The position numbers and the translations under genes were made by a program. This document shows, one piece after another, positions 39,827-56,821 of a stretch of 64,000 nucleotides of DNA. Position 1 is the first letter of the stretch; each line of letters starts with the position of its first letter. The notes beneath the pieces were generated by a model. That model saw only the letters and a list, made by a program, of their open reading frames with translations, had not been told where the DNA came from and did no database searches. Source of the DNA: Escherichia coli (GTDB taxonomy: Bacteria; Pseudomonadota; Gammaproteobacteria; Enterobacterales; Enterobacteriaceae); the NCBI RefSeq assembly GCF_030013205.1, contig NZ_CP122648.1; one strand, written 5' to 3'.

Positions 39827-41866
39827 ATGTCAGGTAATCAGATGCCAGTTCTGACGCTGGACGTTAATGAAGAACACCTCAAACGGCTTGAGGCAATTTT
39901 TGAAAAGTATCGCAACGGGCTGATGATCGGCCCTGCCGGAACGCCGATGAAAATACCGGGGCAAAGTGGGCGCAGCGTGGGGGCAGGCTTACCCGTGGCG
40001 GCAAAATCTGGTCGGACAGGACCGGATGTATCCGGGAGAGTGAGGGACGAAAAAGGGCGCTTTGTCGGCAGCGGAAAAACAGCAGATTCGTTCGTAAGCA
40101 ACTATAAAGGTCGCGGCGAAACGATGTTTGATAAGTATCTCAGCGGGCTGGGGAAAAATGCCCAACAGACGCTGAAAACTTACAAGCAGATCAATTCTAC
40201 ACTACAGACGACCACTTCAAGATTAAACAACCTGTTTAAAACAACCGTATCGTGGGGAACAAAACTCTCGGTTATGGGCGTTGCCGGACCGTTTGGCTTT
40301 GGCATGATGTCCCGTAGTGTTGTAGAGAAACAGAAAAATGCAGATGAGCTGGTGGCAACGCCAGGAGAGTTAAAGGCGGCAGAAAGCACTTATTCGCCTT
40401 ATTTTTCCGGTGTTGGCAATGTGCTCAATACACTGGCAGCAGCACAAAATGATATATCGCATCCTGCCCGCGTCGGCCTGCTTAATCTGGGGCTAAATCC
40501 TGATAAAAACGCGACTGAAAACCTGCCTGTATTCCTGAAAAAGGTTGCAGAGCTGGCAAAGGAATATCAGGGAAGTGGTCTTACCCAGAGCATGCTCAGG
40601 GGAAGAGGGCTTGGATGGGTAAATTTTGGTCTTACTAACCAGTTAGTCAAATATCAGGACAAAATACCTGAACTCAACAAAGAGTTTTCGTTACGTGCAG
40701 CGCAGAATGATTCGTTACTGACCTCTGCACATACAAGTAAATATCAGAATATTACCAGTAACCTGGAAAAAAACTGGGATCGGCTTACCAGCGGATTTCA
40801 GGGAGCAATGGCGGGGAATGAAGACGCTTTAATCAGAATGTCTGATGGTGCCACGAATGCTGCCCTGAATTTCATGAATGGTGAGAACTTTAAAAGGATT
40901 CTGACGGATGTAGAAACGGGGCTGGATAAACTTGGTAAGTACGTAAATGGCCCGGATTTTAATAACGACCTGAACAATTTTGCCGAAAACGTTGCAAAGG
41001 TTGTTAAGGCACTTAGCGGGTTTGTTGGTTTTGCGGTTGAACATCCCTGGCTTTTTGGGGCCGCAGTACTTGCTGGACCATCGAGAGTTGGTGCTGTGGC
41101 AGCCACAACGACCGGAGTTGCCGCCCGTGTTGTTGGTGGAAGTCTTCTTGGGGCTACAGCCGGAACAGTAGCTGGATTGGCTATTCCTACAAATGACACA
41201 CCTACCACCAGTGAGGAAATGAAAGGGCTGGAGGGGCGTTTCAACTTTGATTATTTTAACGAAGTGCAGGAGTGGCAAAAAAACAATCCGGGTAAGGTCT
41301 GGCCTGGAGGATTGCAGGGATTTTCAAATCAAGTAAACAGATCTGCATATTTATCCAGAGGGATCAGGAATAACAATCCCGGAAATCTTAATTTCGCAGG
41401 ACAAAAAGGGGCTACCCTGGAATCGGGGCCAAATGCCCGTTTTGCCAGCTTCCCGACGATGCTGGAAGGCATTGCCGCCTTAGATCGGCAGGTAATGCTA
41501 TACCTGAAACGCGGCAAAAATACGATTGATCAGATTATTGATATTTATGCCCCTTCATCTGATGGAAATAACACATCGTCCTATAAAAGCTATCTCTCTC
41601 AGTACACCGGATTAGGTGTTAAGGAGAAAATCGATGGTTCTAATTTTGAGGTCATGAAAAAGCTAATTCAGGGCATTATTAACCATGAAAATGGTGCTGC
41701 CGCTAAAGCTGTAAGTGTTGAAGATGTGATCCGGGCGCTGGCTATGAATCGTGGGATTGTCCCTGCAGCAGGAAACAATGATCAGAACGTTAAGTTGGAA
41801 ATTGTTCGGAACGCTGGTGCCGATTACTTCGCGCAACTAATTGGTGCTCAACGGTTCCTGGGATGA
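39827..41866 (+). CDS. large hypothetical protein (679 aa) with glycine-rich hydrophobic segment, tape-measure-like
   Basis: AGGAG RBS; central segment AVLAGPSRVGAVAATTTGVAARVVGGSLLGATAGTVAGLAI; function not assignable from sequence. Confidence 0.7.
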   Translation: MSGNQMPVLTLDVNEEHLKRLEAIFEKYRNGLMIGPAGTPMKIPGQSGRSVGAGLPVAAKSGRTGPDVSGRVRDEKGRFVGSGKTADSFVSNYKGRGETMFDKYLSGLGKNAQQTLKTYKQINSTLQTTTSRLNNLFKTTVSWGTKLSVMGVAGPFGFGMMSRSVVEKQKNADELVATPGELKAAESTYSPYFSGVGNVLNTLAAAQNDISHPARVGLLNLGLNPDKNATENLPVFLKKVAELAKEYQGSGLTQSMLRGRGLGWVNFGLTNQLVKYQDKIPELNKEFSLRAAQNDSLLTSAHTSKYQNITSNLEKNWDRLTSGFQGAMAGNEDALIRMSDGATNAALNFMNGENFKRILTDVETGLDKLGKYVNGPDFNNDLNNFAENVAKVVKALSGFVGFAVEHPWLFGAAVLAGPSRVGAVAATTTGVAARVVGGSLLGATAGTVAGLAIPTNDTPTTSEEMKGLEGRFNFDYFNEVQEWQKNNPGKVWPGGLQGFSNQVNRSAYLSRGIRNNNPGNLNFAGQKGATLESGPNARFASFPTMLEGIAALDRQVMLYLKRGKNTIDQIIDIYAPSSDGNNTSSYKSYLSQYTGLGVKEKIDGSNFEVMKKLIQGIINHENGAAAKAVSVEDVIRALAMNRGIVPAAGNNDQNVKLEIVRNAGADYFAQLIGAQRFLG

Positions 41867-41917
41867 TTTAAATACACGCGCTTTCCGGCGCATTAATACA
41901 GTCTGAGGGGAAGTGTC

Positions 41918-42445
41918 ATGTTTATGAGCAAGGCAGAATATGCCAAACACAAAGGCGTAAGCCGCCAGACAGTTTACGACTGGATCGAGAAAGGCGAAGT
42001 GATCATGTCTGGCAAAAAAATTGATGTGGAAGCGACAGAGCAGCGGAACAGCCCACCAGCACAGGGAAAAGATACCGTTTCTGAAATGTGGCCAGAGAGA
42101 ACGCTGGAAATGACGTGGGGCGAGTTCTGGAAAGCAGTTAAGGCCAGAGACGGTAAAATCCCTGCACCAGTAACGGACAATGACATACAGCAGCGTGTAC
42201 AGGATGCAGCCGGGGAACTATGCTGTGAAGTGCAATTTCTTGATGATGGTGCTATCTGCCTTGAGGATTATGCTGGGCAATATTACTTTGAGCAGTATGA
42301 TTTTCGGGAAAATGCCAGGCTGGCAATTCGTATGCTGCGTTGTGAGCTCTGCTATGTTGCAGGTGATTGTCCCGATGAGCTGGATAACTGGAGTGAAGCC
42401 GGACTAAACGCCCTGGCTGAGTGGGAAAAATCAGGCCATCAATGA
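41918..42445 (+). CDS. HTH protein resembling terminase small subunit Nu1 N-terminus
   Basis: N-terminal KAEYAKHKGVSRQTVYDWIEKGEV resembles the lambda Nu1 winged-HTH region; GAGGGGA RBS; 175 aa. Confidence 0.55.
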   Translation: MFMSKAEYAKHKGVSRQTVYDWIEKGEVIMSGKKIDVEATEQRNSPPAQGKDTVSEMWPERTLEMTWGEFWKAVKARDGKIPAPVTDNDIQQRVQDAAGELCCEVQFLDDGAICLEDYAGQYYFEQYDFRENARLAIRMLRCELCYVAGDCPDELDNWSEAGLNALAEWEKSGHQ

Positions 42446-42451
42446 CCTCAA

Positions 42452-42732
42452 AAAGTGTCAAGTTGAGCAGCTTGCCAGGTTGACACTTTACACTCTGAAC
42501 GCGAAAAAGTGTCAACCTCGCTGTAAGCCCCGCCATTACTGGCCTTTCGCCAGATTTACCACGTCAAAAAGCCGAAAAAATCGCGAAAAGTGTCAAGTTG
42601 CCATGCTTAGAAATGCTAAGGTTTGATAAGGTTTTTCGCGAAAAAGTGTCAAGTGTGTCAACCTGCGATGTTAAGATTTGTTAAGGTCTTAAGCCGGAAA
42701 GTGTCAACCAGCCCCCTAAGATTTCCTAAGGT
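42452..42732. repeat. array of AAAGTGTCAA direct/inverted repeats interleaved with TAAGATTT-nn-TAAGGT motifs
   Basis: AAAGTGTCAA at 42452, 42506, 42587, 42643, 42698; inverted copy 42480-42489; TAAGATTTnnTAAGGT at 42673 and 42717. Confidence 0.75.
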
Positions 42733-42739
42733 GTAAACC

Positions 42740-42919
42740 ATGACCATCACCGAAGCCGATTTGCTGGAGATGATCCGCAGCATTGCCGGAATCAAACAAC
42801 CAGCAAGCAAAATTAACAGGTGTTCAGCGCCTGTTTCCGTTGTGCTGCAGCAGGAACGCCACCAGCATGATGATGTGAGGCCGTATCAGTGGCGGAAACC
42901 GGACAGGCCGCGACGGTGA
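42740..42919 (+). CDS. hypothetical small ORF (59 aa)
   Basis: ATG after an AAGGTG RBS just downstream of the repeat array; below the ORF-track size cutoff. Confidence 0.3.
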   Translation: MTITEADLLEMIRSIAGIKQPASKINRCSAPVSVVLQQERHQHDDVRPYQWRKPDRPRR

Positions 42920-43385
42920 GCGGAACGTTCGGTAAGGCTACAGCCAAGCCAAACATTAAGCCTACGGGTAACCCTTCGAAGGGGCTTTAAAGGGGAGATG
43001 ATTATCCTTACCAGTTGATAAACAAGCAAACCTCAAATTTGAGGTTTGTATCTGCCTGACTTATTTTTGTGCTAAGTTGTTGATATATCCGACGACACAA
43101 ATTTGCGTTCTGTGGCTGGTGGTGGCGAGTTACGACCGATCATTTCCTTCCTGGCAGGTTACATCCTGCTGCTCAACTACTACGGTAGCCACTACGATTA
43201 ACTACGCGATGCCGATATGGGGATTCCCATATCGGTTTATCCGTGATCATCCACCAGCTTGATCACGGTTAACAGGGGATGTGTAATCCCCAAGCGAGTG
43301 ATAAATGTGTATAGAAATGTGTATAGAATTTATTTTAGAACTCGCGAATGCGCCTTTATTACTGGCCTTGTGGCTTGTTGTATTG

Positions 43386-43403
43386 TTCCCTTCGCCCGCT
43401 CCA
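43386..43403 (+). repeat. att direct repeat (18-bp copy of the glyU 3' end) at the island 1 / island 2 junction
   Basis: TTCCCTTCGCCCGCTCCA is identical to tRNA positions 29148-29165. Confidence 0.85.
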
Positions 43404-43900
43404 GAATCTCCCCAGGTGGAGAAGACTAAAAAAGTCTTCTCTGTCAGCAACTTAAACAGTTACCTATTTAATTTGCTTAGGAGTTCTACCATTGTGATCC
43501 GCCCTTAGTAACTGTCACGTTAAGTTACTCGGTGAGATGACAGTATAACCTAACGTTGGCGGCAGTTGCACCTCTCACACCGCGATAGCACAACGTGAAG
43601 ATAAAGCCCATCCTGGCATTGTAATGTCATCGACAGACTGAACACACGCATTTAAGCCCGATGTGCGGCCTTGTGGCTGCGTAAACAGGTTTATGGTGAT
43701 ATTGGTCCTTGCAAACCATATGCAAGCTCTATCAGCGTTTCAGCCACGCTCCCAACGGGTACACGGTTATCCTGATAAGGTGTGATCTTTCTGACAATCT
43801 GATGAAGTCGCTACGCTCCCGCTTGTTGCTGTATCACCAACGGGGCTTTATGGTTTCTATTGTCTATAATAATCTCACAATTCCCCTGCATGAGGTTGAT

Positions 43901-44107
43901 ATGACTGTTAGCTACAAGATTACTTATGAGCATAGAGACGGTGATCAAATTAGAATGGAAGAGGTTTTATTCCATTCAGAGCATGAACCAACAAAAGATG
44001 AAATTCATGATGCAGTAAGAAAAGATACTGTGAGATTTAATTCTCCATCTAATGGAGTAACGGCTGTTTCAGGGTTTAAAGTGATTTCGGTTGTCCCTGT
44101 TCCATGA
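43901..44107 (+). CDS. hypothetical small protein (68 aa)
   Basis: ATG at 43901 after a GAGG RBS; ORF track lists a longer 43709..44107 frame. Confidence 0.5.
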   Translation: MTVSYKITYEHRDGDQIRMEEVLFHSEHEPTKDEIHDAVRKDTVRFNSPSNGVTAVSGFKVISVVPVP

Positions 44108-44140
44108 ATGGTTATAGAAGGGGCTGGAAGCCCCTAATTA

Positions 44141-44461
44141 TTACTTCTTAATATCGCCAGTGCATTGATATTCGATAGTCACAAGTGTTTGCATACAACC
44201 AGATGAAGAAGGTTGTGAACATTGAGAAGTGAATCCACCAAAAGGCTCGGCTCCTGAATATCCCCAAGCGGCACAACGCGCTTTGGCTGCATTCATGCCT
44301 TGTTGTGGATCTACAACAGGACTTTCAAACATACCGTAAGAATAACTCATCCTAACTGTGCCGTCTGATTTGCTTCCACCAGTTGGAACGAGTTGTTTTT
44401 TTGTTGCACATCCAGAAATAATCAATGTTGAAGCAAGTAACAGCATTAAACTTTTGCGCAT
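44141..44461 (-). CDS. small lipoprotein (106 aa), Cys-rich
   Basis: Signal peptide with lipobox LIISGC; convergent with the upstream gene across a GGGGCT-GGA-AGCCCC hairpin (44117-44131). Confidence 0.7.
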   Translation of the reverse strand: MRKSLMLLLASTLIISGCATKKQLVPTGGSKSDGTVRMSYSYGMFESPVVDPQQGMNAAKARCAAWGYSGAEPFGGFTSQCSQPSSSGCMQTLVTIEYQCTGDIKK

Positions 44462-45113
44462 GTAAATAATCCCAAGAGATAATGGTTATGTATTGATTTA
44501 AAGCGTTTTTAGATTAATGCATTAACTTAGCAAAATTAAGTCTTTTCTGATTGTTTGCAGAGTAAAAATGAGTTGCTTTCGAAATTATTTCGGATGTTTA
44601 TTGTATTACGGTTTTTCAAACCGTCTAACTATTGTCGCTATTGAATGGGCAATAATAGCAAGAGGATTCATTTCGTCATTGGAGGCAACAAAAAGTCGGT
44701 AACTGATAGCTACAACGAATGAAACAATAACGAGAAAGCGGATAGTGCTAAGATGTTTTGAAGATAAATGCATAACGCCCCCTAAATGAATGTGAGGGGG
44801 ATTAAATCATGCAAATTTGTTGTGTGCAATACTGGTAATTTATCCTAATAGTCTACTATTCACCTCAATCTACGTCAACCAATATTTGATGTAGATTTGA
44901 TTTTCTTTTAAAAACAATATGTTGCAATTTGTTGGGTTTTGGGGTTAGGTTGTTTTTTGGACGTTTCCATCAAGTGTAAAGATACGTTTAGCCTTCATAG
45001 TGAGTTCAGTTACTGTCTTTTTCTCTGAAATCGGCGCATACGTGATCATCGCTTAACGAGAAGATCAGCGCCGTCAGGTCCATGCAGCGACAATTCTGAA
45101 ATATCAGGAGGCA

Positions 45114-45665
45114 TTACGCTTCCTGCTCTTTCTTGATACGTTGCACCGTCTGTGTGCTGACACTGAAATCTTTTGCTACGCTCCGAATTGATCCACCATT
45201 CGCGAGAGCGGCAACAATTCCCGCTCGATCAATTGCTTTTCCATTACCACGTTTTGCTATACGCCCAGCTGCCTTAGCTGCGGCGATCCCTTCACGTTGA
45301 CGCTCAAGCATCATTTCACGTTCCATTTGTGCCACTGCTGCAAGCACTGTGAGCATCATATTCCCTGCGGGAGAGTTCTTCCCTGTCTTAAAGTCTTCTT
45401 TATGGAAATGCACAGACACGCCGCGCTCTGTTAATTGCTCAACCGTTGCCAGAAGGTCGGCTGTATTACGGCAAAGGCGATCAATACTGTGAACATGCAA
45501 AACATCACCTTCCCGCACATAGTTCATCATTGCCTCAAACTGTGGGCGCTGGGTATTCTTGCCTGACGCTTTATCTTCAAAGACTTTATCAAGAGCTACT
45601 CCAGCTAATTGACGGTCTGTGTTTTGTTGCACAGTCGATACCCTAATGTATCCAATATTAGCCAT
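45114..45665 (-). CDS. serine recombinase (resolvase/invertase family)
   Basis: 183-aa ORF; N-terminal IGYIRVSTVQQ with catalytic Ser; C-terminal HTH (SIRSVAKDFSVSTQTVQRI). Confidence 0.85.
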   Translation of the reverse strand: MANIGYIRVSTVQQNTDRQLAGVALDKVFEDKASGKNTQRPQFEAMMNYVREGDVLHVHSIDRLCRNTADLLATVEQLTERGVSVHFHKEDFKTGKNSPAGNMMLTVLAAVAQMEREMMLERQREGIAAAKAAGRIAKRGNGKAIDRAGIVAALANGGSIRSVAKDFSVSTQTVQRIKKEQEA

Positions 45666-46166
45666 TTTCTTTATTCCTTCTGTGTTGATTTGTGTGTAGT
45701 GATTATTGATCGTGTTGATTAGGTGTGTAAAGGACTTTTTTCACTACGAAATTCGAAGGTTTTTAGTGTGGTGATTTAGCCTGCTTTATCACTACACGTC
45801 TTGCATGAGAATCATGTAGTTACGTTTTGGTAAAATTAGCAAGCTATTAAATAGTGTGTTTATTTTGAAAAAATAATTTTTTGTTGCATTAAAGAAAACT
45901 TGTTCGACAAATAATAGATTGATTTTTAATCAATAATTTCTGATAGTGCTCTGTAAGCCGCATTACACAAGGCTTTGCGAAAGTGATGTAAAAGTGAAGA
46001 AAGTAAGAATTGCACTTTTAAGCTACTTTTCATTGAATTTTTAGTATGGAATTACACAGGGATTAATCATCAATTACATTGAATTTAAGCCTGTTTTAGA
46101 TGTTTAATTTTGGTAGCAAGAAACACTTTTAGAAGATCATTGCACAGATGTTATGTGATAAATGGA

Positions 46167-46325
46167 TGTAACGATGGGTTACATTCAGCTATCTGAAATA
46201 CTCTCTGTAAGAAATTTGGTAGTAACGATTCGTTACATAGACTAATTATTGAATGTAACGATATTACACATCGGTAGTAACGATACGTTACATCGGCAGA
46301 TGATTGGTTGTAACGAAAGGTTACA
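46167..46325. repeat. five palindromic sites TGTAAC-n5-GTTACA (and GTAACGA-n-TCGTTAC variants)
   Basis: Sites at 46167-46183, 46223-46237, 46254-46268, 46276-46290, 46309-46325 inside a 1.7-kb non-coding AT-rich region. Confidence 0.75.
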
Positions 46326-47357
46326 CAATAAGACTAACATCTATAATACTAATAATAAAACTAACTATTAAACTATATAATATAATTCTTTTTTATCTTT
46401 ATAAGAATAATTATAGGGATACCCGTTAGGGAGTCTAACGACTATCCCTTAATCTATTGGCATTCGCCAGAACCTTGCACAAGTTAGAGTGTTAGTCGTT
46501 AGACTGCTTGTCATAACACATAGTTTTTGTTTGTTGATGTTAGTTAGTAGATCTATGTTCGCTTTCCGCTCACAACGAATATGTAATCTACTATGTGCAA
46601 ATAGCCTACGGCTTGCGTAAGGCTAAATAGTCTTGCGCTGTGCGCAGAACGATAATTAACTAACTACCATCTAACGATCATCAATCATCTAAAATAAATT
46701 TCTTGTGCAATGTTCTTGCGAATGCAATTAGGGTAGCGTTACCCCTTTGGGGATGCTAACGCATAACTATAGATCAACCATCAAACAGACAAAAAAGAAA
46801 AATATGGTTTAAAGATGTTAGGTAGTAGATGAGTTTCTACCGCTTAAATCAAGCCGTAGGCGAGCTAAACGTATATAAGGTAGGGAAACACTTAGCGGTA
46901 ATAGATTAGCTCGTTATAGAGATTCTGAGGAGCTTTACAGGTATTTTATAAGGTGTCTGAAATTAGATTTTATCTACCATCACCTTTTCATATACCTAAC
47001 AAATACAAAATAAGCACCTTAAATAAGCCTCTGGCGAGCTAAACGGTCATTACATAAGGGAATGTATTGTTTTTATCAAAACCTCGTTAGAACGCGTTTT
47101 AGAGCGTTATTAGACAATAATGAAGAATAGCACTACACAGGAGAGCACGAATTGCTAAGACAAATTATAAATTGCTGAAATAGATCGGATTTTTTGCAAA
47201 ATGGTATTGACAAATGTCTCTTTCTGTGCAATAATAGGTATTAGAGGGACAGAAAACATTCTTATCCTCTAAGTAATTAAACCAATGCACCGCACTTTGA
47301 GCCGTCAGGCTGCAAGGTGTCTTTTTCTTTTAACCAAATAGAATAGGAGGTTAATTA

Positions 47358-47540
47358 ATGAAATATTTCACTCCACAGGATGTAGTAGAAGCCTGGAAAC
47401 GTGGTGAGATCAATCGTTTTAAAGTAAGGATGAACAGGAACACAGCGCGACGCTGTGGTTATCCAGAGCGTGAAAAATGTTTTGACGATGCACTAAAAAT
47501 TATTGATGAACTGCGTAAGGCAGAAGTAGAGAAAGAATAA
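47358..47540 (+). CDS. hypothetical small protein (60 aa)
   Basis: Strong AGGAGG RBS; ORF track. Confidence 0.65.
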   Translation: MKYFTPQDVVEAWKRGEINRFKVRMNRNTARRCGYPEREKCFDDALKIIDELRKAEVEKE

Positions 47541-47561
47541 TAACAGGAGAAGGAGAAAACT

Positions 47562-47729
47562 ATGAGCGAAACTAAGAAACCAATTCCGCGCACTTACCTA
47601 CACGTTGACCCTGAAATCTTCAAGGTTTTATTTGCTGAAGCCAAGAAAAGGCAAATTATGGTCAGTGATTTGATGTTAGAAATCATTACTGAAGCAGCAG
47701 AGAACATCAAACAAAAAAAGGGTAAGTGA
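47562..47729 (+). CDS. ribbon-helix-helix-like small protein (55 aa)
   Basis: Manual translation MSETKKPIPRTYLHVDPEIFKVLFAEAKKRQIMVSDLMLEIITEAAENIKQKKGK; GGAGAAGGAG RBS; below the ORF-track cutoff. Confidence 0.55.
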   Translation: MSETKKPIPRTYLHVDPEIFKVLFAEAKKRQIMVSDLMLEIITEAAENIKQKKGK

Positions 47730-47782
47730 TCCTCATTCACTTTAGTAGCGCATTAAGCGTGATTTATAAGGAGATAATTCTA

Positions 47783-48463
47783 ATGTCTAAAATTAAATTG
47801 ATTCGTGAAAAATACCAGTATGTTGATAAACAAACAGGAGAAATTAAAGACAGAACTTTGAATATACCACACTACTTTTGTGAGATTGAATTCATCTACT
47901 CCTCAAATATTGAGGATGGAAAAGCGAAGTTTAGTGCAGAAATGCAAAAATTATATTGCTATGTTTCAGATTGGGAGAAATCAGGGGGGATATGTTTTGA
48001 AACACAAACGAAGTTAAGTAAAGTTTGTGGCTGTAGCCGTAAGACAGTTAATGAATTGATTGGTCTTATGATTAAAATCGGTCTTTTAGAAGAGGTCGGA
48101 GAACGAATCCCAAAACGTCCTTTAAAATTACGTGCGCTACTTCTCACAGATGCACATATTACTCCCCCTGGAGAATCATCACTACCTGATCCTTCTGAGA
48201 AAGAAGACGAATCTAATGAAATATTGAATGTTTCCGAAATCATCCTTGAAGAAGAAACACAAGAGCCAGAGTTCCCTGAGCGGCCCGAAATTTTTACTTG
48301 GCTTCTTTCCCTTGATAAGAAGAAACCACCGCACGAAGAAACAGAAGATTTTGTAAAACGTGCATTAGATTCAAAGAATATCTATCTTGAGAAACAGGCT
48401 TTTCACGATCTGATAATATCTCTAAGAGAAAAAAGTGAAATATACGATTCAATACCATTCTAA
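47783..48463 (+). CDS. winged-HTH protein (226 aa), possible replication initiator or regulator
   Basis: AAGGAG RBS; HTH-like TQTKLSKVCGCSRKTVNELIGLMIKIGLLEE; acidic C-terminal half. Confidence 0.65.
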   Translation: MSKIKLIREKYQYVDKQTGEIKDRTLNIPHYFCEIEFIYSSNIEDGKAKFSAEMQKLYCYVSDWEKSGGICFETQTKLSKVCGCSRKTVNELIGLMIKIGLLEEVGERIPKRPLKLRALLLTDAHITPPGESSLPDPSEKEDESNEILNVSEIILEEETQEPEFPERPEIFTWLLSLDKKKPPHEETEDFVKRALDSKNIYLEKQAFHDLIISLREKSEIYDSIPF

Positions 48464-48472
48464 GGAGAATAA

Positions 48473-48742
48473 ATGACTTATAACATCACTATAGGAAACA
48501 AAACTATTGAAATAACTGAAAGCGGATACAACATTTTAAAAGCTATTTTGGAAATAGAGTTCTCACCGCCGACAGTGGTTAGCTTTTGTAGTTTAGGCGG
48601 CTACAGCGCACAACACGTGAATCATTGGTTAAACCATTTTACATCGTTCGGTGTGCTGGATTATGAAGGGATTAACAGCACTACATTTCGTCTTTTGAAA
48701 TTAAACAAAGATTTTGAATTGTTTATCACAAACAATCAATAA
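48473..48742 (+). CDS. hypothetical protein (89 aa)
   Basis: AAGGAG RBS; ORF track. Confidence 0.6.
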   Translation: MTYNITIGNKTIEITESGYNILKAILEIEFSPPTVVSFCSLGGYSAQHVNHWLNHFTSFGVLDYEGINSTTFRLLKLNKDFELFITNNQ

Positions 48743-48838
48743 CAACAGATCGGGCAATACATATGGCAAATGCATTTATGGCGATATTCATTGTAACAAT
48801 GGTATCAAGTTTTTATAATCCACATAAAAAGAGGGAAA

Positions 48839-49222
48839 ATGGGAAGAAAGAAAAAGAACAACTTAAAACGTATTGAAAAAAACAGTAACTTCAATTCAAC
48901 AAGACAACGTCCACCGACACACACCAATAACGAAATTCCAGGGGAAGAGATAATATTTATTCTTGAAACAGAATCCCCTGAATTAAGCGATGAAGAATTA
49001 GAAATAATCCAGTCAATGCCAGGCGTTTACTTTCGCCCAAGAACAAGAAAACAAACTATCATTTCTGATGGCACTCTGAAACGTTGGCAGCTTTTAGGGT
49101 TTAGCTCCTATCATCATTTTTTGGGATTTAACGCTTTCAATAATTGTGTAGGTGGTGCATCGGAAGTCGATCTGATGGCTCATTTAGAAGATACATTAGC
49201 TTCTAACAAACGTTCTAACTAA
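48839..49222 (+). CDS. hypothetical protein (127 aa)
   Basis: AGAGGG RBS; ORF track. Confidence 0.6.
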   Translation: MGRKKKNNLKRIEKNSNFNSTRQRPPTHTNNEIPGEEIIFILETESPELSDEELEIIQSMPGVYFRPRTRKQTIISDGTLKRWQLLGFSSYHHFLGFNAFNNCVGGASEVDLMAHLEDTLASNKRSN

Positions 49223-49237
49223 TAAAATGATGGGAGT

Positions 49238-49510
49238 ATGTATAAGCGCCCAATGAAAATAATCGAAAAAGGAAAAATAATGATTAACTATCAACTATTA
49301 GAAACAACATTTTTTAAAGAAGCAAAACAACTTGCAGAAGTGTTTATTTCACTGGCTGAACGAGCAAAAGAAGAAAATGATTTTGCCTTGCTTGATGATG
49401 TGCTGGATGACATTGCAACCTATCGTATACCGCTACAGATTGCACTAAACAAGGCTAAACAGATTCAGCAAGAGATGGAATCAGCAGATCAAGGAGAGAT
49501 TGCACAATGA
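49238..49510 (+). CDS. hypothetical protein (90 aa)
   Basis: ORF track; 4-nt overlap with the next gene. Confidence 0.55.
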   Translation: MYKRPMKIIEKGKIMINYQLLETTFFKEAKQLAEVFISLAERAKEENDFALLDDVLDDIATYRIPLQIALNKAKQIQQEMESADQGEIAQ

Positions 49511-49815
49511 CAGACAACATTCTGGAAGTTATGGACACTCTTTCGGATCGGATGATCGCCCTACAGACACGTATCAATCAAGCCTATTCAGATTTATGCG
49601 ATTACACGCTCTCTCAATGCGTTAGTAGCTTAATGAAGGTGAATGTAAGCCTTGACGATTTCATCTCTCTGGTGAGCGATTTAGAGCTATCTAAGGACGA
49701 TGTCAGGCTGTGTACTCAAACCATCACAGACACCGCCAGCACGTTAAAGGCTGCAAGTGAAGAGATTCAGCAATTAGTAGATGATTTAGCAAAAAGTGCT
49801 ATTTTCTCCAAATGA
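49507..49815 (+). CDS. hypothetical protein (102 aa)
   Basis: AAGGAG RBS; ORF track. Confidence 0.6.
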   Translation: MTDNILEVMDTLSDRMIALQTRINQAYSDLCDYTLSQCVSSLMKVNVSLDDFISLVSDLELSKDDVRLCTQTITDTASTLKAASEEIQQLVDDLAKSAIFSK

Positions 49816-50807
49816 TAATGAAAATCATTTGCATTTATAACGATTTCATTATATAATGATATTAGGGGTAGATAAAAAGGTTTTGACTGGTGTTAATCCT
49901 TCTACTGTCATAAATCCCTGCATATGGAAGGTGATAGCCTCAAGGGTTGAGTGGCATTAACCTCTAACAAATATTACCTTCCATCTCTCAAGAAGTTTTA
50001 GAATAATCATAACTCCCTCTTTGATTGTTGATTGTTTCTACGTTGTGTTGATGAATGTTGTTAGGCATTGTGCTTAATTTTGATAAAAGCGGGTAGGTGT
50101 TATCTCCTTGCCCTTCCCGCTCTTATTTTTCATCTATGCTTATCCTAAAGCTCCTTATTTTGTCCGAAAACATTAAAGAGCCTTACACTGATAGTTATAT
50201 TTTATAACTATTTACTAACATCATTAAACTCTTATTTAATGACAGAAGTTAGTAACAGAATAATCTATTAAGTTGTTGTCAAAAAACTATCATCTGCATA
50301 GCGTTAGCCGCAAGTAGAGAGAGTTTAGTTAAGAATGGTGCAATAAACTTTGGAAATATTGATAGCAAAACTAGTTTTATAGAATGCGGATCTATAATCT
50401 TTGGTTGTAAAAACGATTTTCTGAAACGGTAGATTACTGTTGGTGTAGTTAATCCTTATTAAAAATTTAATCTGTGAGTAGATTGGAATAGTGATTCCTT
50501 AAAATCTGACTGGTGCATCCACACCATGAAAGATAGCAGTTGGCCACCGCGCCCCGAATAGATATTCCTGATTGATTCCGCATGTTTTCCTAAGAGCATG
50601 TTTTCAGGAATATCTGTTCACCCTTTAAACCTATCTTTAAGCATGTTTAATAAGCATTCTTAGAGATACGTTTAAAACCTCCTCAAGGTTTTACTTATCG
50701 CTGTGTATTGCCCGACACGTTAATAAATCCCCCTCGCTATTGTCAGATTGAACCTCTTATAGCCTGGGGGATTTATTAAATTCCAGCATAATGGAATCGT
50801 TATATAA

Positions 50808-51017
50808 ATGAAACAAGAAATTATCCTGAAATATGGCAATGAAAAGTTAACACTAACTGAAGATGTGTTGAATGCTACAGCCTACGCGCTTGGCATCACT
50901 CCCACAGAATTAAAGAAACAGTGTGAACGTCTTTATAAGGCTGAAAGCAATAAACCATCTCACCAAGATTTGATTAATGCTAAAGCTCAACAAATCAAAC
51001 AATCTAAGGAAAAATAA
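50808..51017 (+). CDS. hypothetical small protein (69 aa)
   Basis: ORF track; stop overlaps the next start (TAATG). Confidence 0.5.
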   Translation: MKQEIILKYGNEKLTLTEDVLNATAYALGITPTELKKQCERLYKAESNKPSHQDLINAKAQQIKQSKEK

Positions 51018-51391
51018 TGGCTATTTTAAAATTAAGCGATGTTTTCCCACATCGTAAAAGCATCACTGACGTAGTGAGCTATGCAACCGACCCTTACGCG
51101 GCTGTAGAAAGCAAAAAATTTGCAGCACTTGCACAAGATGTAACGTGCGGCGACCTCATTGATTCATCCGGCGCTAAATATGTTAGCGGCGCTGATGTTC
51201 TTGTCGTTGTGTCTGACTTCGTAACTGCTGATTCAAATAAAACAGTTAACGTGCTTCGTGCTAATGCCGGACTCGTTTGCATCAAAGCTGATGCCCTGAA
51301 TGCCGAAGGCGCTGTAAAAGAAGCTGCTATTGCAGCTCTCGCTGCTAAAGGCTTCCAGCTTGAAGGCTTCCACTCTGTTTTCACATCTTAA
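51017..51391 (+). CDS. putative phage head decoration-like protein (124 aa)
   Basis: Position directly upstream of a major-capsid-like gene, as for lambda D/E; the assignment rests on context only. Confidence 0.45.
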   Translation: MAILKLSDVFPHRKSITDVVSYATDPYAAVESKKFAALAQDVTCGDLIDSSGAKYVSGADVLVVVSDFVTADSNKTVNVLRANAGLVCIKADALNAEGAVKEAAIAALAAKGFQLEGFHSVFTS

Positions 51392-51407
51392 GAAGGAATA
51401 AATAATA

Positions 51408-52436
51408 ATGATTATCGGAAATGAAGTGGTTGATCTTGCTCCACTGTTCGAATTAAACGACTCACGCAATTACCTACTGTCTACTCTGGATTTTACTGAT
51501 CCTGTGCCTGTAGAAAGTCACAAAGTGGCTGTTTCCCAGCTTATCGAGAGCAATGAATCTCTGTTCAACCATCCTACAAGCCGTTTTAGCTCTGAGCATA
51601 ACGTTACTAAGCGTGAGAACGGGGAAGAATGGCTGATTGAAATCCCTTACTTCCTGCGTGAAGACCTGATCAAACCGCAGGACGTGCAAGGCAAACGCAA
51701 AGCCGGAAGCTCTATTGAAGAAACACTGCCGGATCTGTATGCGGAATATATCGCTACACACAATGTTGCATTCCAGCGCACTAAAGAAAGCATCCTCGCG
51801 GCTTCTCTGTTCTCTGGCAAGACACATACCCCGAAAACTGACGATGTTCTGATCGACTACAGCACTCTGTTCGGTGTGTCTCCAATGACTGCAACCGTTG
51901 ACGCATCCAGCACCAACACAATGACCGTATTCAAGCAATTTGATCAGATGCATACGGATATGATTGCTAAGGCACAAAGCCAGGCTGCAACCATTGAGCG
52001 TGTTGTTGTGTTCTGTAAACCTGCGGCATTCAACGCTATTCGTTACAGCGTTGGCATGGTTAATGCGTTCCAGTATGCAAGCCCTGTAGACGATGCAAAC
52101 GTGGTGTTTAATGTGCGTTCTCTGCTGCCTGGTGTAACTACTTTCACCATTCCAGGAACTAACATTGACCTGATCAAAGTGACTGATCCGCTGCTGCTGG
52201 CACATATGACCGCTGACGCTGTAGCTATTCCTAAACTTGCTAAGGGGGCAGGTGTTTACCAAGCTATTTTTGGTGCGCCTTCCAGTTCATTCGATCTGCT
52301 GTCTCAAGGCGCTAAAGAGTATTACAGCTATGCTTTCGAATCGAATCGCGGCGACGCAGTGCACGTAGTGACCGAGAATAGCTCGCTTGTGGTTAACCAC
52401 GGTGTTGGCTTCTCTGTGCAGATCACAGTAGCGTAA
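51408..52436 (+). CDS. putative phage major capsid protein, lambda E-like
   Basis: 342 aa (lambda gpE is 341 aa); C-terminus ...GVGFSVQITVA resembles the gpE C-terminus ...DEFVSVQLA; N-terminal DLAPLFEL region. Confidence 0.5.
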   Translation: MIIGNEVVDLAPLFELNDSRNYLLSTLDFTDPVPVESHKVAVSQLIESNESLFNHPTSRFSSEHNVTKRENGEEWLIEIPYFLREDLIKPQDVQGKRKAGSSIEETLPDLYAEYIATHNVAFQRTKESILAASLFSGKTHTPKTDDVLIDYSTLFGVSPMTATVDASSTNTMTVFKQFDQMHTDMIAKAQSQAATIERVVVFCKPAAFNAIRYSVGMVNAFQYASPVDDANVVFNVRSLLPGVTTFTIPGTNIDLIKVTDPLLLAHMTADAVAIPKLAKGAGVYQAIFGAPSSSFDLLSQGAKEYYSYAFESNRGDAVHVVTENSSLVVNHGVGFSVQITVA

Positions 52437-52590
52437 AAAGTGTTAAAGACGTTCCCCTACGTCTGGAAATAATCGGGGCAATAAGGGTAAGGGATAATCA
52501 TATAAGCAAAATATGCGCTGTCTCTTGCACTTTTTGTTTTTCTACTGTCTACAAACCCAAATAAAAATATATATATGTGAGAGAAAACCA

Positions 52591-52788
52591 ATGAATACAG
52601 AAAATTCACAGGCATTAATTCTTAAATCTGTAAAAGAACTGGCAGCTATTAGCGATGACTCAATAATCAATGTCAGTGCCTTATGCAGAATGCTTTCAAT
52701 TGATGCAAATAATGTGCGGCAGCGTGTGTTTCAGACTGGATGCAGCACTTTTGAAGCAATTACATACTACTGTTCTAAAAAACAATAA
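52591..52788 (+). CDS. hypothetical small protein (65 aa)
   Basis: ATG at 52591 within the ORF-track frame 52513..52788. Confidence 0.45.
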   Translation: MNTENSQALILKSVKELAAISDDSIINVSALCRMLSIDANNVRQRVFQTGCSTFEAITYYCSKKQ

Positions 52789-52822
52789 TAAACAACAATC
52801 ATAATACAGGGAAACAATTAAC

Positions 52823-54646
52823 ATGTTAGAGCTAAACATCAGCCGCTTGTCAAACGTTGTCACCTTCGAAGTTAACCGACCATCATTAGAGAAAGCAAAA
52901 GCAGAAGTAGAAAAACTTCGTAAACAAATGGCGGCGGTGAAAGATATAGAATTGCGTGTTAAGACACATAAACAATCAACCGCTAGAGCAAAAAAAGACG
53001 TAGACGATATTGCTAAAAAGCAAGCACAGGCTGATAAAGCTAATGCTAAAGCACAATTAGCCGCTCAACGTGTAGTTGCAAGAGAACAAAAAGCCCTGGC
53101 AGCACGCAAAGAGAAGGCAGAATTAAAGCTTTTAGACGTTGGATCAAGCATTAGTGCAATGCACCGTCTTTCTGTAGCGGAACAATATAAAGCTATTGCA
53201 CAGGCTAGAGAAATTGCCCTCCAATATGAAAGAGGCGCTATTAGTCTGGCACGTATGAATAGCCAAATGAAACGCCTACAACAGCAACAACGTAAGATTA
53301 ATGGCAATCGTAACGCTCACGCTAAAGCCTATGCACCTGTTAAGGGTAGCGGGAGTATTGGCGGCGGTGCTGCGGCTGTTATGCTGGGTGGCTTAGGCGC
53401 TGGCGCTACGTATATGGCTATGAGCAAAGCCTCTGAATTTATGGCTAATAGCTTTGCGAATGCTGAAACAGAAGGGGAATTAATCCAACGTGCAAGGCTT
53501 GGTGGAGTTGATTACAACTTACTTAATAATCTTGAGCGTTGGGCTTACGATAACGGGATCGATAGCCTCCAGGGTGATCAGGGACGCAGAAAAATACTAG
53601 ATGCCATCGGTAAAGATGTGCGTGAACGTGCAACCAAATCTTATGACGAGGCTGAATATGTAGTCGATAAGAAAACAGGGAAAGGCGAATGGAAGGGCGG
53701 CGATAGCGGCATCAATACTTTAATGAATGAAGGATTCCTAACTAAAAAGGATCTAAAAGACTTTGCTGATAATCCGGCTGGTCTGGTTAGTAAAGCAGTT
53801 CAGGGAATGGTAGCTAAAGGCTATTCAGATGCACAAATCGGTAGTCGTCTGGAAGATCTGGCTGATGATTTGATGCTCACCTCTAAATACTGGACACGCT
53901 CCGCTAAAGAAGTGGAACAATCAGCACGAGAACAACGAGAATCAGGGCGCTGGGTAACGCAGGCACAACAGGAAAGCGTTATTAAATTCCGTGAACTGAA
54001 TAATGCACTTAGTGGGCTTTCTGACTCACAAGGGATCGCCTTTGTTGATGGCTTTATGAAATCTCTTGATCCGAAAGTGATTGAAGAGTTTAAAAAGAGC
54101 ATGGTTGCAATGCTGCCAATGTTTACCAAATTAGGCGAGGCTATCGGCGGATTGGTTAACGCTGTAATGAAAGCAATCAACTGGCTGATGAAAAACGACG
54201 AGAAGACGGCAGCTATTCAGAAGAATTTAGGTGATGCACCGCCACTATCTAACGAAGGAATGAAGCAGAATCTTTCTAATCTCACTCCTGATCAATATAA
54301 AGGCGCTGGCACCGGAACAACTAAGCCAGATAACAGCAATTCCCTGGTTAACACTATTAAAAGCTGGTTTATGCCAGAAGAAACGGTAGGTGGGGCGCAG
54401 GCTGTAAATCAATACAGTCTCGAAGGACAAAACATTGCAAATCTGAAACAGAGTGCAGCACAACAAGCTTTCAAGGCTCCTTCTTACACCTTTGCACCTG
54501 TTATTAACTTCAATCCAGAATTACAAGTAAATGCAGAAGTGCCGCTAACTATCGAATCAGACACCGGACGATTGAGCGAATTTATCGACTTCAAATCAAA
54601 GGCATCTTCCGCTGAGTTTAGCAAGCTATTTAGACTGGCCCCCTGA
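52823..54646 (+). CDS. tape-measure-like protein (coiled-coil plus glycine-rich hydrophobic segment); 3' end truncated by IS2
   Basis: 607-aa ORF; N-terminal coiled coil; [25 protein letters not shown]; the last 5 codons and the stop come from the IS2 left end. Confidence 0.6.
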
Positions 54647-54721
54647 ATCTCCAGACAACCAATATCACTTAAATAAGTGATAGTCTTAATACTAGTTTTT
54701 AGACTAGTCATTGGAGAGCAG

Positions 54722-55087
54722 ATGATTGATGTCTTAGGACCGGAGAAACGCAGACGGCGTACTACACAGGAAAAGATCGCTATTGTTCAGCAGAGTTTTG
54801 AACCGGGAATGACGGTCTCCCTTGTTGCCCGGCAACACGGTGTGGCAGCCAGCCAGTTATTTCTCTGGCGCAAGCAATACCAGGAGGGAAGTCTTACTGC
54901 TGTGGCCGCAGGAGAGCAGGTCGTTCCTGCCTCTGAACTTGCTGCTGCCATGAAGCAGATTAAAGAACTCCAGCGCCTGCTCGGCAAAAAAACGATGGAA
55001 AATGAACTCCTTAAAGAAGCCGTTGAATACGGGCGTGCAAAAAAGTGGATAGCGCACGCGCCCTTATTGCCCGGGGATGGGGAGTAA
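54722..55087 (+). CDS. insC: IS2 transposase OrfA (InsC)
   Basis: [41 protein letters not shown]... matches IS2 InsC. Confidence 0.9.
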
Positions 55088-55950
55088 GCTTAGTCAGCCG
55101 TTGTCTCCGGGTGTCGCGTGCGCAGTTGCACGTCATTCTCAGACGAACCGATGACTGGAAAGATGGTCGCCGCAGCCGTCACTCAGATGATACGGATGTG
55201 CTTCTCCGTATACACCATGTTATCGGAGAGCTGCCCACGTATGGTTATCGTCGGGTATGGGCGCTGCTTCGCAGACAGGCCGAACTTGATGGTATGCCTG
55301 CGATCAATGCCAAACGTGTTTACCGGATCATGCGCCAGAATGCGCTGTTGCTTGAGCGAAAAACCGCTGTACCGCCATCGAAACGGGCACATACTGGCAA
55401 AGTGGCCGTGAAAGAAAGCAATCAACGATGGTGCTCTGACGGGTTCGAGTTCCGCTGTGATAACGGAGAAAAACTGCGAGTCACGTTCGCGCTGGACTGC
55501 TGTGACCGTGAGGCACTGCACTGGGCAGTCACTACGGGCGGCTTCGACAGTGAAACAGTACAGGACGTAATGCTGGGAGCGGTGGAACGCCGCTTCGGCA
55601 ACGAGCTTCCGGCGTCTCCAGTAGAGTGGCTGACGGATAATGGTTCATGCTACCGGGCTAATGAAACACGGCAGTTTGCCCGGATGTTGGGGCTTGAACC
55701 GAAGAACACGGCGGTGCGGAGTCCGGAGAGTAACGGCATAGCAGAGAGCTTCGTGAAAACGATAAAGCGTGACTACATCAGTATCATGCCTAAACCAGAC
55801 GGGTTAACGGCAGCAAAGAACCTTGCAGAGGCGTTCGAGCATTATAACGAATGGCATCCGCATAGTGCACTGGGTTATCGCTCGCCACGGGAATATCTGC
55901 GGCAGCAGGCCAGTAATGGGTTAAGTGATAACAGGTGTCTGGAAATATAG
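55045..55950 (+). CDS. insD: IS2 transposase OrfB (InsD), DDE catalytic domain
   Basis: 301-aa ORF overlapping orfA in the -1 frame; IS3-family integrase core. Confidence 0.9.
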
Positions 55951-56050
55951 GGGCAAATCCACTATTAACGCTGGGTGTTATGTCAGGCGGGTCAACCTAT
56001 TAATCATCACTGTGGGGCGGTTTAGCCCCCTTAAATAAGGATTACAAATT

Positions 56051-56728
56051 ATGGCAATGGGTCCGTTAACCATTGGTCGCCCGACTGAGGCGAAAATCAA
56101 CAGCACAAGCAACGATAGCAACGGTAGAACAACCAAAGGGGGTAACGGCTTTGCGATCATTACCTCTAATCTCGGCAGTGGTGCAAATGCTGCTTACAAT
56201 GACTACCAGGCATTATCATTTGATAGCGTGGAATCGACGAAAGTTAGCAGAAATGCGGACGTTACAAGCTATGCCGTCGAATCAGGATCAGAAGTTAGTG
56301 ATCATGTTCAAATACGGAATAACAAGTTCACATTACAAGGGCGTATCTCTGAAACCGTATTGAAGCTCAATCCCGATATGATTAAGAATGCGGGAATTAA
56401 CGGCAATCGACGTATGCTTATGCTTGAATACCTAAATCAGTTGATGGACAGTCGCCAACCTTTCCTACTTGTCACTGAGTTAAAAAATTATGACAACGTT
56501 GTGTTAGTTGGCATGTCTTACGAAGAAGAAGCAAGCGAAAGCCTATTGTTTACTCTTGATTTTGAGCAAATCCGTCTTGTCTCTAAAGCAACTACAAGCG
56601 CAATTGCGGTAAAAACAGCACCAAATAAATCTGTAGGAGGTCAGGTTAAAATGCAGGTAAATACAACAGAACAGAAAAATCAAAAAAGCCCAGGGCAAGA
56701 CGTTGTAACGCCAGTATTTAAACAATAG
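56051..56728 (+). CDS. hypothetical protein (225 aa)
   Basis: AAGGA RBS; ORF track; immediately downstream of the IS2 insertion. Confidence 0.6.
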   Translation: MAMGPLTIGRPTEAKINSTSNDSNGRTTKGGNGFAIITSNLGSGANAAYNDYQALSFDSVESTKVSRNADVTSYAVESGSEVSDHVQIRNNKFTLQGRISETVLKLNPDMIKNAGINGNRRMLMLEYLNQLMDSRQPFLLVTELKNYDNVVLVGMSYEEEASESLLFTLDFEQIRLVSKATTSAIAVKTAPNKSVGGQVKMQVNTTEQKNQKSPGQDVVTPVFKQ

Positions 56729-56821
56729 CCTTAAACACCTATGAAACGCTCTATAACGAGATAATCATAAAAGAGGCATCAATCTATATTGAAGCCTCTT
56801 TATTACGTCTATGGCGTTGTT

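Follow-up and report, generated by a model that had tools for sequence, protein, structure and literature searches.

A putative RepA_N-type replication operon in a predicted integrated Escherichia coli phage satellite and its counterparts in virulent myoviruses

INTRODUCTION

A family of 224 putative Escherichia coli phage satellites was described by Barth, Dunham and Seed in 2023 (PMC10448857), who found them through parts of RepA_N proteins, the RepA_N call being made by HHsearch. The phages that they are predicted to parasitise are Stephanstirmvirinae. Among virion genes these satellites have those for capsid, decoration, tape-measure and baseplate proteins, whereas genes for terminase, protease and portal are missing; their tyrosine integrases lie at tRNAs, and the N-terminal domains of their RepA proteins are modular. 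The same paper reported that satellite RepA DNA-binding domains are mirrored in 'Odn-like' T5orf172 nucleases of phages, proposed there to be convergent analogues of the nuclease Odn of phage ICP1, and that the second RepA_N domain of each nuclease is without detectable satellite counterpart. Here we analyse a 64,000-nucleotide stretch of E. coli DNA (the window; NCBI RefSeq assembly GCF_030013205.1, contig NZ_CP122648.1), in which an array of seven small plus-strand genes at 47358-49815 appears to be the early operon of one such element.

In mechanism, although not in membership, this system resembles the Vibrio PLE satellite and its phage ICP1, with which we compared it through PMC8263062. 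PLE encodes a RepA with an exchangeable N-terminal iteron-binding domain and has semi-palindromic iterons in a non-coding region, while ICP1 Odn is a T5orf172 nuclease that carries a copy of the RepA domain and cuts the PLE origin (PMC8263062). The likeness lies in a satellite of a virulent myovirus, a cognate origin and RepA that are swapped as modules, and a phage nuclease with a copied domain. The differences are that the phage and satellite domains share 87–99% amino acid identity in E. coli, as opposed to 42% between Odn and PLE1 RepA (PMC8263062), and that the coliphage nucleases have two DNA-binding domains in tandem, unlike the Odn system. The E. coli elements also encode capsid, tape-measure and baseplate homologues, which PLE is not described as encoding.

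Two further comparisons are informative. The RepA_N initiators of staphylococcal multiresistance plasmids bind iterons as dimers, and in these plasmids the iterons lie within repA. The satellite RepA shares the two-part build of the pSK41 and pTZ2162 initiators, in which the DNA-binding domain is N-terminal and the C-terminal domain stands apart from it, but identity is only 17–19%, the satellite C-terminal domain is much shorter, and the satellite iterons lie 1.4 kb upstream of repA, unlike in plasmids of this type. Like cf-PICIs and P4-like satellites, the island studied here (island B) is an integrative element of ∼10–15 kb that sits at a tRNA, carries some virion genes and presumably depends on a helper. 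It differs in being without AlpA, Pri-Rep, P4-alpha primase, terminase, protease, portal and head-tail adaptor, a conclusion that PMC10448857 also reaches, and its presumed helpers are virulent phages of ∼147 kb, as opposed to the temperate helpers of cf-PICIs and P4-like satellites.

RESULTS

Seven co-directional genes form a probable early operon

We read the seven genes as the early and replication operon of an integrated satellite (43405-58150), likely a parasite of virulent Stephanstirmvirinae myoviruses of the phi92/phAPEC8-like kind (inny, muut and Mt1B1_P17), and give this reading a probability of roughly 0.75. The window comes from an E. coli chromosome, and positions 45000-52500 are 100% identical to several porcine enterotoxigenic E. 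coli (ETEC) genomes, e.g. NZ_CP122719.1. The genes, with the ratio of nonsynonymous to synonymous polymorphism (pN/pS) where it was assigned, are as follows.

47358-47540, plus strand: g60, 60 amino acids (aa), first gene of the operon, pN/pS 0.09–0.3
47562-47729, plus strand: g55, 55 aa, ribbon-helix-helix-like by its AlphaFold2 fold and identical in a phage
47783-48463, plus strand: repA, 226 aa, N-terminal DNA-binding domain of allele A
48473-48742, plus strand: g89, 89 aa, core gene, pN/pS 0.06–0.14
48839-49222, plus strand: g127, 127 aa, core gene with a basic N-terminus and diverged orthologues
49280-49510, plus strand: g76, 76 aa (90 aa if the start is at 49238); gene body at 49292-49539 is a replaceable cassette
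49507-49815, plus strand: g102, 102 aa, helical or coiled-coil-like, phrog_4122 (unknown function) at E 1e-4

The original prediction, made from the sequence alone, had described this array as six AT-rich genes with strong ribosome-binding sites. The genes are present, but they number seven: what had been counted as one '90/102-aa' gene is two open reading frames (ORFs), 49238 or 49280-49510 and 49507-49815, which meet in an ATGA overlap. The other parts of that description hold. A purine-rich Shine-Dalgarno motif lies directly upstream of all seven ORFs (in gene order AGGAGG, GGAGAAGGAG, AAGGAG, AAGGAG, AGAGGGA, GGGAG/AAGGAAA and AAGGAGAG), and the operon genes have a GC content of 34–42% compared with ∼50% in the chromosome on either side. 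When the genes were compared with diverged copies from other E. coli, pN/pS was 0.06–0.3 for g60, g89, g127, g76 and repA and ∼0.5 for g102; because these values are low, the small ORFs are taken as real genes, most of them under purifying selection. A single operon is plausible since the intergenic gaps are short. The chromosome of strain ETEC1748 is 100% identical at the operon, and its RefSeq annotation contains the same coding sequences, seven in all.

The 226-aa protein resembles RepA_N initiators

The RepA protein consists of a winged helix-turn-helix (HTH) domain over residues 1–130, a linker LTDAHITPPGESSL, a disordered acidic stretch over residues 132–164 and a three-helix C-terminal domain. 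It had been predicted to be a winged-HTH protein with an acidic tail. The winged HTH is borne out by a match to HTH_36 (E 1.3e-4, below the Pfam cutoff) and by a confidently modelled N-terminal domain; the acidic part is real, but it is a disordered linker followed by a folded domain and not a tail. A Pfam hmmscan at E ≤ 0.1 listed only HTH_Crp_2 and HTH_36, the latter with 22.1 bits where the cutoff is 25, and no nuclease domain was found with Pfam. The PHROG matches, on the other hand, are all to replication-initiation families, the best being phrog_270 (E 4e-6).

An AlphaFold2 model built from 28 diverse homologues has a mean predicted local distance difference test score (pLDDT) of 77.5, with values of 85–95 over residues 1–130. 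In a Foldseek search of the Protein Data Bank (PDB) with this model, places 1–7 were all taken by N-terminal domains of RepA_N proteins from pSK41 and pTZ2162 (4PQL, 4PT7, 5KBJ and 4PTA), with E-values of 1.6e-3 to 1e-2, a probability of 1.0 and target-normalised template modelling (TM) scores of 0.45–0.49 over ∼115 of ∼130 residues; 5KBJ is a Rep-DNA complex. Sequence comparison with the PDB gave spurious or no matches for RepA, g55 and g89. With moderate confidence, then, the N-terminal domain is modelled as a RepA_N winged-helix fold, and from profiles and model together we assign the 226-aa protein as a RepA_N-like initiator, the predicted RepA of the satellite. Across family members the DNA-binding domain and the C-terminal half assort independently, with recombination at the conserved linker LTDAHITPPGESSL.

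Each RepA allele is paired with its own iteron

Upstream of the operon lies a 1.7-kb non-coding region with the following features, none of which has an assigned strand.

46167-46325: iteron array of four perfect 17-bp palindromes TGTAACGnnnnGTTACA, starting at 46167, 46221, 46276 and 46309
46325-46420: 84% A+T stretch directly after the iterons, a putative DNA-unwinding element, found beside every iteron type
46415-46770: structured non-coding segment with nested long inverted repeats, fold z −6.8 (plus strand) and −7.5 (minus strand) against shuffles

The iteron-like DNA noticed earlier is thereby confirmed: GTAACGNNNNGTTAC occurs four times at 46168-46324 and is not repeated exactly elsewhere in the 64 kb. 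With one mismatch allowed and both strands counted there were nine hits, compared with 0.72 expected from shuffles; eight of these are the four palindromes and one is a stray at 43514. A fifth, half-degenerate copy lies at 46254, and the resulting spacings of 54, 33, 22 and 33 bp are all about multiples of 11, close to whole helical turns. We place a putative origin at 46167-46420, ∼1.4 kb upstream of repA.

Alignment with other family members (compared records carry L numbers below) indicates that the iteron array is a replaceable cassette between conserved flanks. Among 17 typed loci there are five alleles of the RepA domain, each with its own palindrome of 16–17 bp.

Allele A, 6 loci: iteron TGTAACGnnnnGTTACA
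Allele B, 4 loci: iteron TAGGAAATGAGTTCCTA
Allele C, 4 loci: iteron TAGGTCACTGTGAGCTA
Allele D, 2 loci: iteron TAACAGAAnnnTGTTA
Allele E, 1 locus: iteron TTGATACCCCTATCAA

At every one of these loci (17/17) the array bordering the AT-rich stretch has the iteron type that belongs to the local RepA allele; the loci are not phylogenetically independent, so that this count does not translate into a probability, and their backbones are visibly mosaic. That the palindromes serve the serine recombinase encoded to their left, as its res or hix sites, was rejected as the main explanation: the recombinase stays unchanged between loci whose palindromes differ in line with their RepA alleles.

Composite origins are seen in L017, L018 and L024, where several iteron types stand in series and the cognate type is always last. 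The order of sites is AAACDBBBCCC in L017 and ADBBCCCDDDDD in L024, and L017 (40-640) has a second AT-rich stretch after its allele-B array. The non-cognate upstream arrays may have been left behind, as fossils, when earlier iterons were replaced, or they may act as decoys.

The structured segment at 46415-46770 is conserved at 87–98% across alleles; it may act as a structured RNA, as a site of single-strand initiation or as a packaging signal. An Rfam scan of 43–57.5 kb at E ≤ 1 returned no family, and a comparison of the 1.7-kb non-coding region with 50,697 phage records (blastn, distant mode) returned a single match at chance level.

Nucleases of virulent phages carry matching DNA-binding domains

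Phage inny is a 147-kb virulent Justusliebigvirus of the Stephanstirmvirinae. Positions 47550-48175 of the window, comprising g55 and the first 130 codons of repA, are 96% nucleotide-identical to inny, and positions 47550-47775 are 99.6% nucleotide-identical to phage muut; at the protein level, residues 1–140 of RepA share 87% identity with the N-terminus of inny gp184. The matching phage proteins consist of two winged-HTH domains of the HTH_36 type followed by a MUG113/T5orf172 nuclease domain (GIY-YIG superfamily), with a match to phrog_681 'endonuclease' at E 4e-18. Their genes are these.

inny gp184: L002 4233-5336
muut gp154: L003 4232-5230
Mt1B1_P17: L019 1225-2211

The original prediction had named clear homology to ordinary phage early genes as the finding that would count against it. 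Half of this is seen, in the 96–99.6% nucleotide identity to early-region genes of inny and muut; the matching genes, however, encode chimeric T5orf172 nucleases rather than ordinary housekeeping proteins, and they appear to have captured the DNA-binding domain of the satellite. The linker LTDAHITPPGESSL is also present in the phage nucleases, and a 38-bp match to Mt1B1_P17 falls exactly at it.

The two DNA-binding domains of the nucleases map to different satellite alleles. The first corresponds to allele A in inny (87–95% amino acid identity), to allele D in Mt1B1_P17 (99% over 105 aa) and to allele E in muut (89% over 139 aa). The second domain is 88–89% identical in amino acid sequence to allele-B RepA in all three phages, and in inny and muut it has 93.5% nucleotide identity to allele-B repA over 261 nt; the matching allele-B repA occurs also in a satellite from the table of PMC10448857 itself. 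Allele B is the commonest satellite allele (indexed, as P0101, in 3152 blocks of the collection), and allele C has no counterpart among the three phages. From these matches the phage nucleases look bivalent, with an anti-B domain and a variable A, D or E domain, and the allele-A element of the window would be a target of inny-like phages.

The complete inny genome contains no array of allele-A, -B or -C iterons, as expected if the DNA of the satellite is what the phage domain is directed against. Two TGTAACGA words at inny 39599 and 39653, 54 bp apart, were examined as a candidate site and set aside, as they form a long-range inverted repeat and not a palindrome. In the divergent intergenic region of inny at this point (L007 39599-39661), TGTAACGAG and its reverse complement lie 45 bp apart beside an annotated AT-rich repeat; the likeness of this half-site to an arm of the allele-A iteron is probably a coincidence.

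The satellite origin and the phage nucleases together suggest a multi-round, multi-allele arms race, with decoy or fossil arrays, bivalent nucleases and a P4-like leader switch. We put this larger picture forward tentatively, as a possibility somewhat short of an even bet.

A different reading of the same proteins and palindromes is that the ribbon-helix-helix and winged-HTH proteins are transcriptional regulators, forming an immunity or repressor pair, with the palindromes as operators for divergent expression of the recombinase and the early operon. HTH_36 and ribbon-helix-helix folds are indeed common in repressors, 17-bp palindromic sites are typical of operators, NCBI names some of the alleles 'transcriptional regulator', and many of the RepA Foldseek matches below the top seven are regulators of the MarR/ArsR type. 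The position of the palindromes nevertheless fits operators less well: they lie ∼1 kb from the promoter at 47207 and ∼500 bp from the recombinase start, over neither, and they always abut the AT-rich stretch. Moreover, the fold matches that cover the whole domain are to iteron-bound RepA_N initiators, the PHROG matches are without exception to replication initiation, and the copying of the domain by phages makes most sense if it binds in cis to something that the satellite cannot do without, for example its origin. For these reasons we consider the regulator reading unlikely and retain that of a RepA acting at an origin.

Island B is bounded by att repeats and encodes virion homologues

Two tandem islands, A (29157-43404) and B (43405-58150, 14.7 kb), occupy the space from glyU to the type III secretion genes of ETT2, and the second of them holds the seven-gene operon. 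The features that define and fill island B outside the operon are listed here.

29082-29155: tRNA-Gly(CCC) gene (glyU)
43382-43404: left boundary, a degenerate attachment (att) repeat with an 18/23 match to the tRNA-Gly 3′ end, at the junction with the upstream tandem island
45114-45665, minus strand: small serine recombinase of the resolvase/invertase type, 183 aa, Pfam Resolvase 5.6e-39, phrog_125 1e-61
51017-52436, plus strand: 124-aa gene in the decoration-protein position and 342-aa major capsid protein of the lambda gpE type, Phage_cap_E 1.1e-17
52823-56003, plus strand: tape-measure-like gene, 614 aa when intact, phrog_16051 1.2e-29, 26% identity to inny gp105 (E 8e-25)
54631-55961: insertion sequence (IS) element of the IS3 family, 1331 bp, interrupting the tape-measure-like gene
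56051-56728, plus strand: Dit-like/baseplate-hub protein, 225 aa, PF21821 1.2e-27, 49% identity to inny gp106 (E 5e-64)
56822-58042, minus strand: tyrosine integrase, adjoining attR
58128-58150: attR, a perfect 23-bp copy of the tRNA-Gly 3′ end

The terminal 23 bases of the tRNA-Gly gene thus occur at 29134, at 58128-58150 as a perfect copy and at 43382-43404 as a degenerate one. The satellite capsid protein aligns over its full length with the inny major head protein gp96 (23% identity, E 5e-12). The 124-aa protein shows no similarity to the inny decoration protein, and its decoration role is putative, assigned from its position and from the HHsearch of PMC10448857. No terminase, portal, protease or other tail genes were found among the ORFs of island B with Pfam, PHROG or the annotation.

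These features place island B, from its sequence, in the satellite family of PMC10448857. It encodes a RepA_N-type protein without a T5orf172 domain, whose DNA-binding part is near-identical to that of a phage odn homologue; it carries capsid, decoration-position, tape-measure and baseplate genes in the absence of terminase, protease and portal genes; and it has att repeats, an integrase beside one of them and an adjoining tRNA. Table S6 of PMC10448857 lists HF572917.2 (L012) and CP011331.1 (H36, L021). Leaving aside the swapped cassettes, L012 and the window are 87–96% identical over 44.6–50.8 kb; for H36 the identity is 93.6%, over 68% of the operon region. The window copy differs from the published family in standing in tandem behind another island and in the IS within its tape-measure-like gene.

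The family was matched in 708 of 5426 complete E. coli genomes (∼13%). Its compact gene order recurs at several tRNA sites with intact att repeats, and discrete att-bounded copies of 12.3 kb are found at other tRNAs. Since the plasmid collection gave only two partial matches, one of them to a mislabelled chromosome-sized record, the module is not a circulating plasmid replicon.

The serine recombinase to the left of the origin is kept in most family members, including L004, L011 and L012. No res or hix-like site was identified for it, and a role in multimer resolution is a guess. When it was compared with the translated inny region (tblastn), a weak match was seen (29% identity over 118 aa, E 2e-6).

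The IS3 element of the window, which the ETEC1748 copy lacks although it is otherwise identical, shares 96.9% identity with the IS that separates g55 from repA in L013. Insertions of this kind raise the question of whether the cluster is the remnant of a decaying prophage with drifting genes. In addition to the one in the window, an IS lies inside the module between g55 and repA in L013 and L014 and an IS1 is present in L020, and the island is without terminase, portal and most tail genes. Decay would not account for a compact gene order that is kept, with att intact, at several tRNA sites and in ∼13% of the complete genomes of E. coli, for small genes under purifying selection, for the coordinated replacement of iterons and RepA domains, or for near-identity to circulating lytic phages, which implies ongoing exchange. 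We regard decay as very unlikely.

g55 is probably an accessory regulator

The claim that the 55-aa protein is of the ribbon-helix-helix type stands only at the level of the modelled fold; there is no sequence match in Pfam or the PDB. The AlphaFold2 monomer (pLDDT 85) has an extended N-terminus followed by two helices, a form that as a monomer cannot show the dimeric beta-ribbon. Nearly all of the top 50 Foldseek matches are ribbon-helix-helix proteins, with TM scores of 0.6–0.74 and weak E-values of 0.13–1.5; they include Arc, CopG, ParG, ORF56, MazE, CopA_SO, TacA and VapB. The protein is identical to muut gp153 and, over 53 aa, to inny gp185, and the phages keep this identical copy upstream of the nuclease gene. 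In allele A, g55 shares a cassette with the RepA domain; alleles C and D have one common g55 variant, and allele-B elements have none. By model and sequence, g55 is probably an accessory CopG-like regulator outside the minimal replicon, and we propose that the gene could also serve as a left homology arm for domain exchange with phages.

Since MazE, CopA_SO, TacA and VapB are among its fold matches, g55 might instead be an antitoxin, with a small neighbour as toxin or abortive-infection effector, and satellites often carry defence cargo (see also PMC10085698). However, no toxin or defence family was found in PADLOC, Pfam, NCBIfam or PHROG for the seven proteins or their alternates, the gene that follows g55 is repA and not a toxin, allele-B elements lose g55 yet keep all other genes, and identical g55 copies occur in lytic phage genomes. 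This makes a toxin-antitoxin module highly improbable. A partition system, with g55 as a ParG-like centromere binder on the repeat array, has in its favour the ParG fold match and the resemblance of phased repeats to some centromeres, but its likelihood is close to negligible given that the island encodes no ParA/ParF-type ATPase, that the element is chromosomally integrated, and that the repeat type tracks the RepA allele and not g55 (one variant in C and D, none in B). Of the functions first suggested for the region, replication is therefore backed by the RepA fold, the PHROG matches and the iterons, while partition, toxin-antitoxin and abortive infection find no support.

The remaining small proteins are less readily characterised. 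Profile searches, proposed earlier as a check, yielded the sub-threshold HTH_36 match and the replication PHROGs for the 226-aa protein whereas for g60, g89, g127, g76 and g102 no informative match came from Pfam, PHROG, PADLOC or NCBIfam. Within the satellite family, no segment is conserved more widely than g60. For g89, a Pfam match to the winged HTH of Stn1_C (E 0.084) weakly suggests that it is possibly a small winged-HTH protein; an hhalign comparison with the RepA family aligned it to the recognition helix, but at E 0.029 and a probability of 1.7% this is not usable. Orthologues of g127 with 29–67% identity are present in all variants checked. In L011–L015 unrelated sequence takes the place of the g76 body, although identity remains at 96% in the start region of the gene and in the genes on either side; the body is thus exchangeable as a cassette, the third after the iterons and the RepA domain. 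Elements of the L004 type have diverged versions of the small genes, and PADLOC and NCBIfam returned nothing meaningful for the alternative cargo genes of L004.

A promoter and a terminator-like hairpin precede the operon

Two signals stand upstream of g60.

47207-47235, plus strand: strong sigma-70 promoter, TTGACA, 17 bp, TG-n-AATAAT (extended −10), 11/12 match
47292-47333, plus strand: leader hairpin (47292-47320) followed by TCTTTTTCTTTT, intrinsic-terminator-like, between the promoter and g60

The promoter is the best sigma-70 match in a 9-kb scan, and its −35 hexamer is invariant in seven diverged loci. In the hairpin the lower stem and the T-run are invariant, and two pairs at the top of the stem change on both sides. 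The immunity of P4 works through premature termination in the leader of its early operon. By analogy, the promoter-terminator leader may be a P4-like, termination-based silencing switch that is released by the helper: transcription would normally stop at the leader terminator, and read-through would be conditional on helper infection. A short-word search for motifs shared between the satellite non-coding regions and inny, such as helper promoters, gave chance-level matches only.

A model of satellite replication and the evidence against it

Taken together, the analysis suggests the following sequence of events. Once read-through begins, RepA dimers would bind the iterons and melt the AT-rich stretch, and the C-terminal part of RepA would recruit a helicase, either host DnaB or the primase-helicase of the helper, so that an excised circle of 13 kb would be amplified through RepA action. 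As a CopG-like repressor or copy-control factor, g55 could regulate the operon, and g89, g127, g76 and g102 would be early factors particular to the satellite, with possible parts in helper takeover, excision or regulation. Virion assembly of the helper would then be redirected by the homologues of capsid, tape-measure and baseplate proteins. The phages would retaliate with T5orf172 nucleases bearing copied RepA domains, which presumably cut the satellite origin, as ICP1 Odn does with PLE.

Several observations weigh against this reading. At the level of the initiator, the Pfam RepA_N model did not match RepA at E ≤ 0.1, HTH_36 stayed below its gathering score, and the Foldseek E-values are modest. 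At the level of the origin, the iterons are 1.4 kb from repA and could be operators or sites of another protein, e.g. the serine recombinase, and the 17 loci on which the pairing was typed are not independent of one another. The allele-A palindrome is absent from inny, which fits an anti-satellite role and provides no independent sign of binding. With respect to gene content, g55 is missing from allele-B satellites and hence is not essential to the replicon, no role could be read for g60, g89, g127, g76 or g102, and the IS in the tape-measure-like gene may mean that the window copy is not mobilisable. Finally, excision, replication, packaging and the identity of the helper rest on prediction, both here and in PMC10448857; in the literature searched, the prediction of the family is bioinformatic only, and no experimental follow-up was found.

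The feature is real, and its family has already been described, computationally only. What our sequence analysis adds is a putative origin with five allele-specific iterons, an allele-to-phage map, the apparently bivalent nucleases and the leader terminator; PMC10448857 does not use the word 'iteron', nor does it describe the origin, the leader terminator, g55 as a ribbon-helix-helix protein or the small downstream genes. These additions sharpen the published model and leave its kind unchanged. If the prediction of PMC10448857 is true, a common E. coli satellite family (∼13% of complete genomes) exploits virulent phi92/phAPEC8-like phages, which are in use in phage-therapy cocktails, and would offer a genetically tractable counterpart to the Vibrio PLE-ICP1 system. 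Knowledge of the origin, the iterons and the pairing of RepA with nucleases makes that prediction directly testable. For annotation, genes now listed as 'hypothetical proteins' or 'transcriptional regulators' would be relabelled as a satellite RepA and a ribbon-helix-helix regulator, and the origin would be marked.

Neighbouring regions

Island A has the appearance of a satellite of the P4-like or PICI type, unrelated to island B, in which case two different satellites share one att site. Its products include a tyrosine integrase, an antirepressor (AntA/B), a primase of the P4 type and an Icd-like protein, as well as ProQ/FinO, PerC, NUDIX and DUF2213 proteins, a transglycosylase protein of 679 aa (phrog_7694) and an HTH protein that resembles small terminases. 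At the left end of island B, positions 43709-44461 hold an ORF of 85–132 aa and, on the opposite strand, a gene for a lipoprotein of the YecR family; both are possible cargo. Between the early operon and the structural genes lies a gene-free gap of 1 kb (49816-50807), which is conserved at 90–98%, the same as coding DNA. It contains a hairpin with 21-nt arms at 50720-50779 and may be a late control region.

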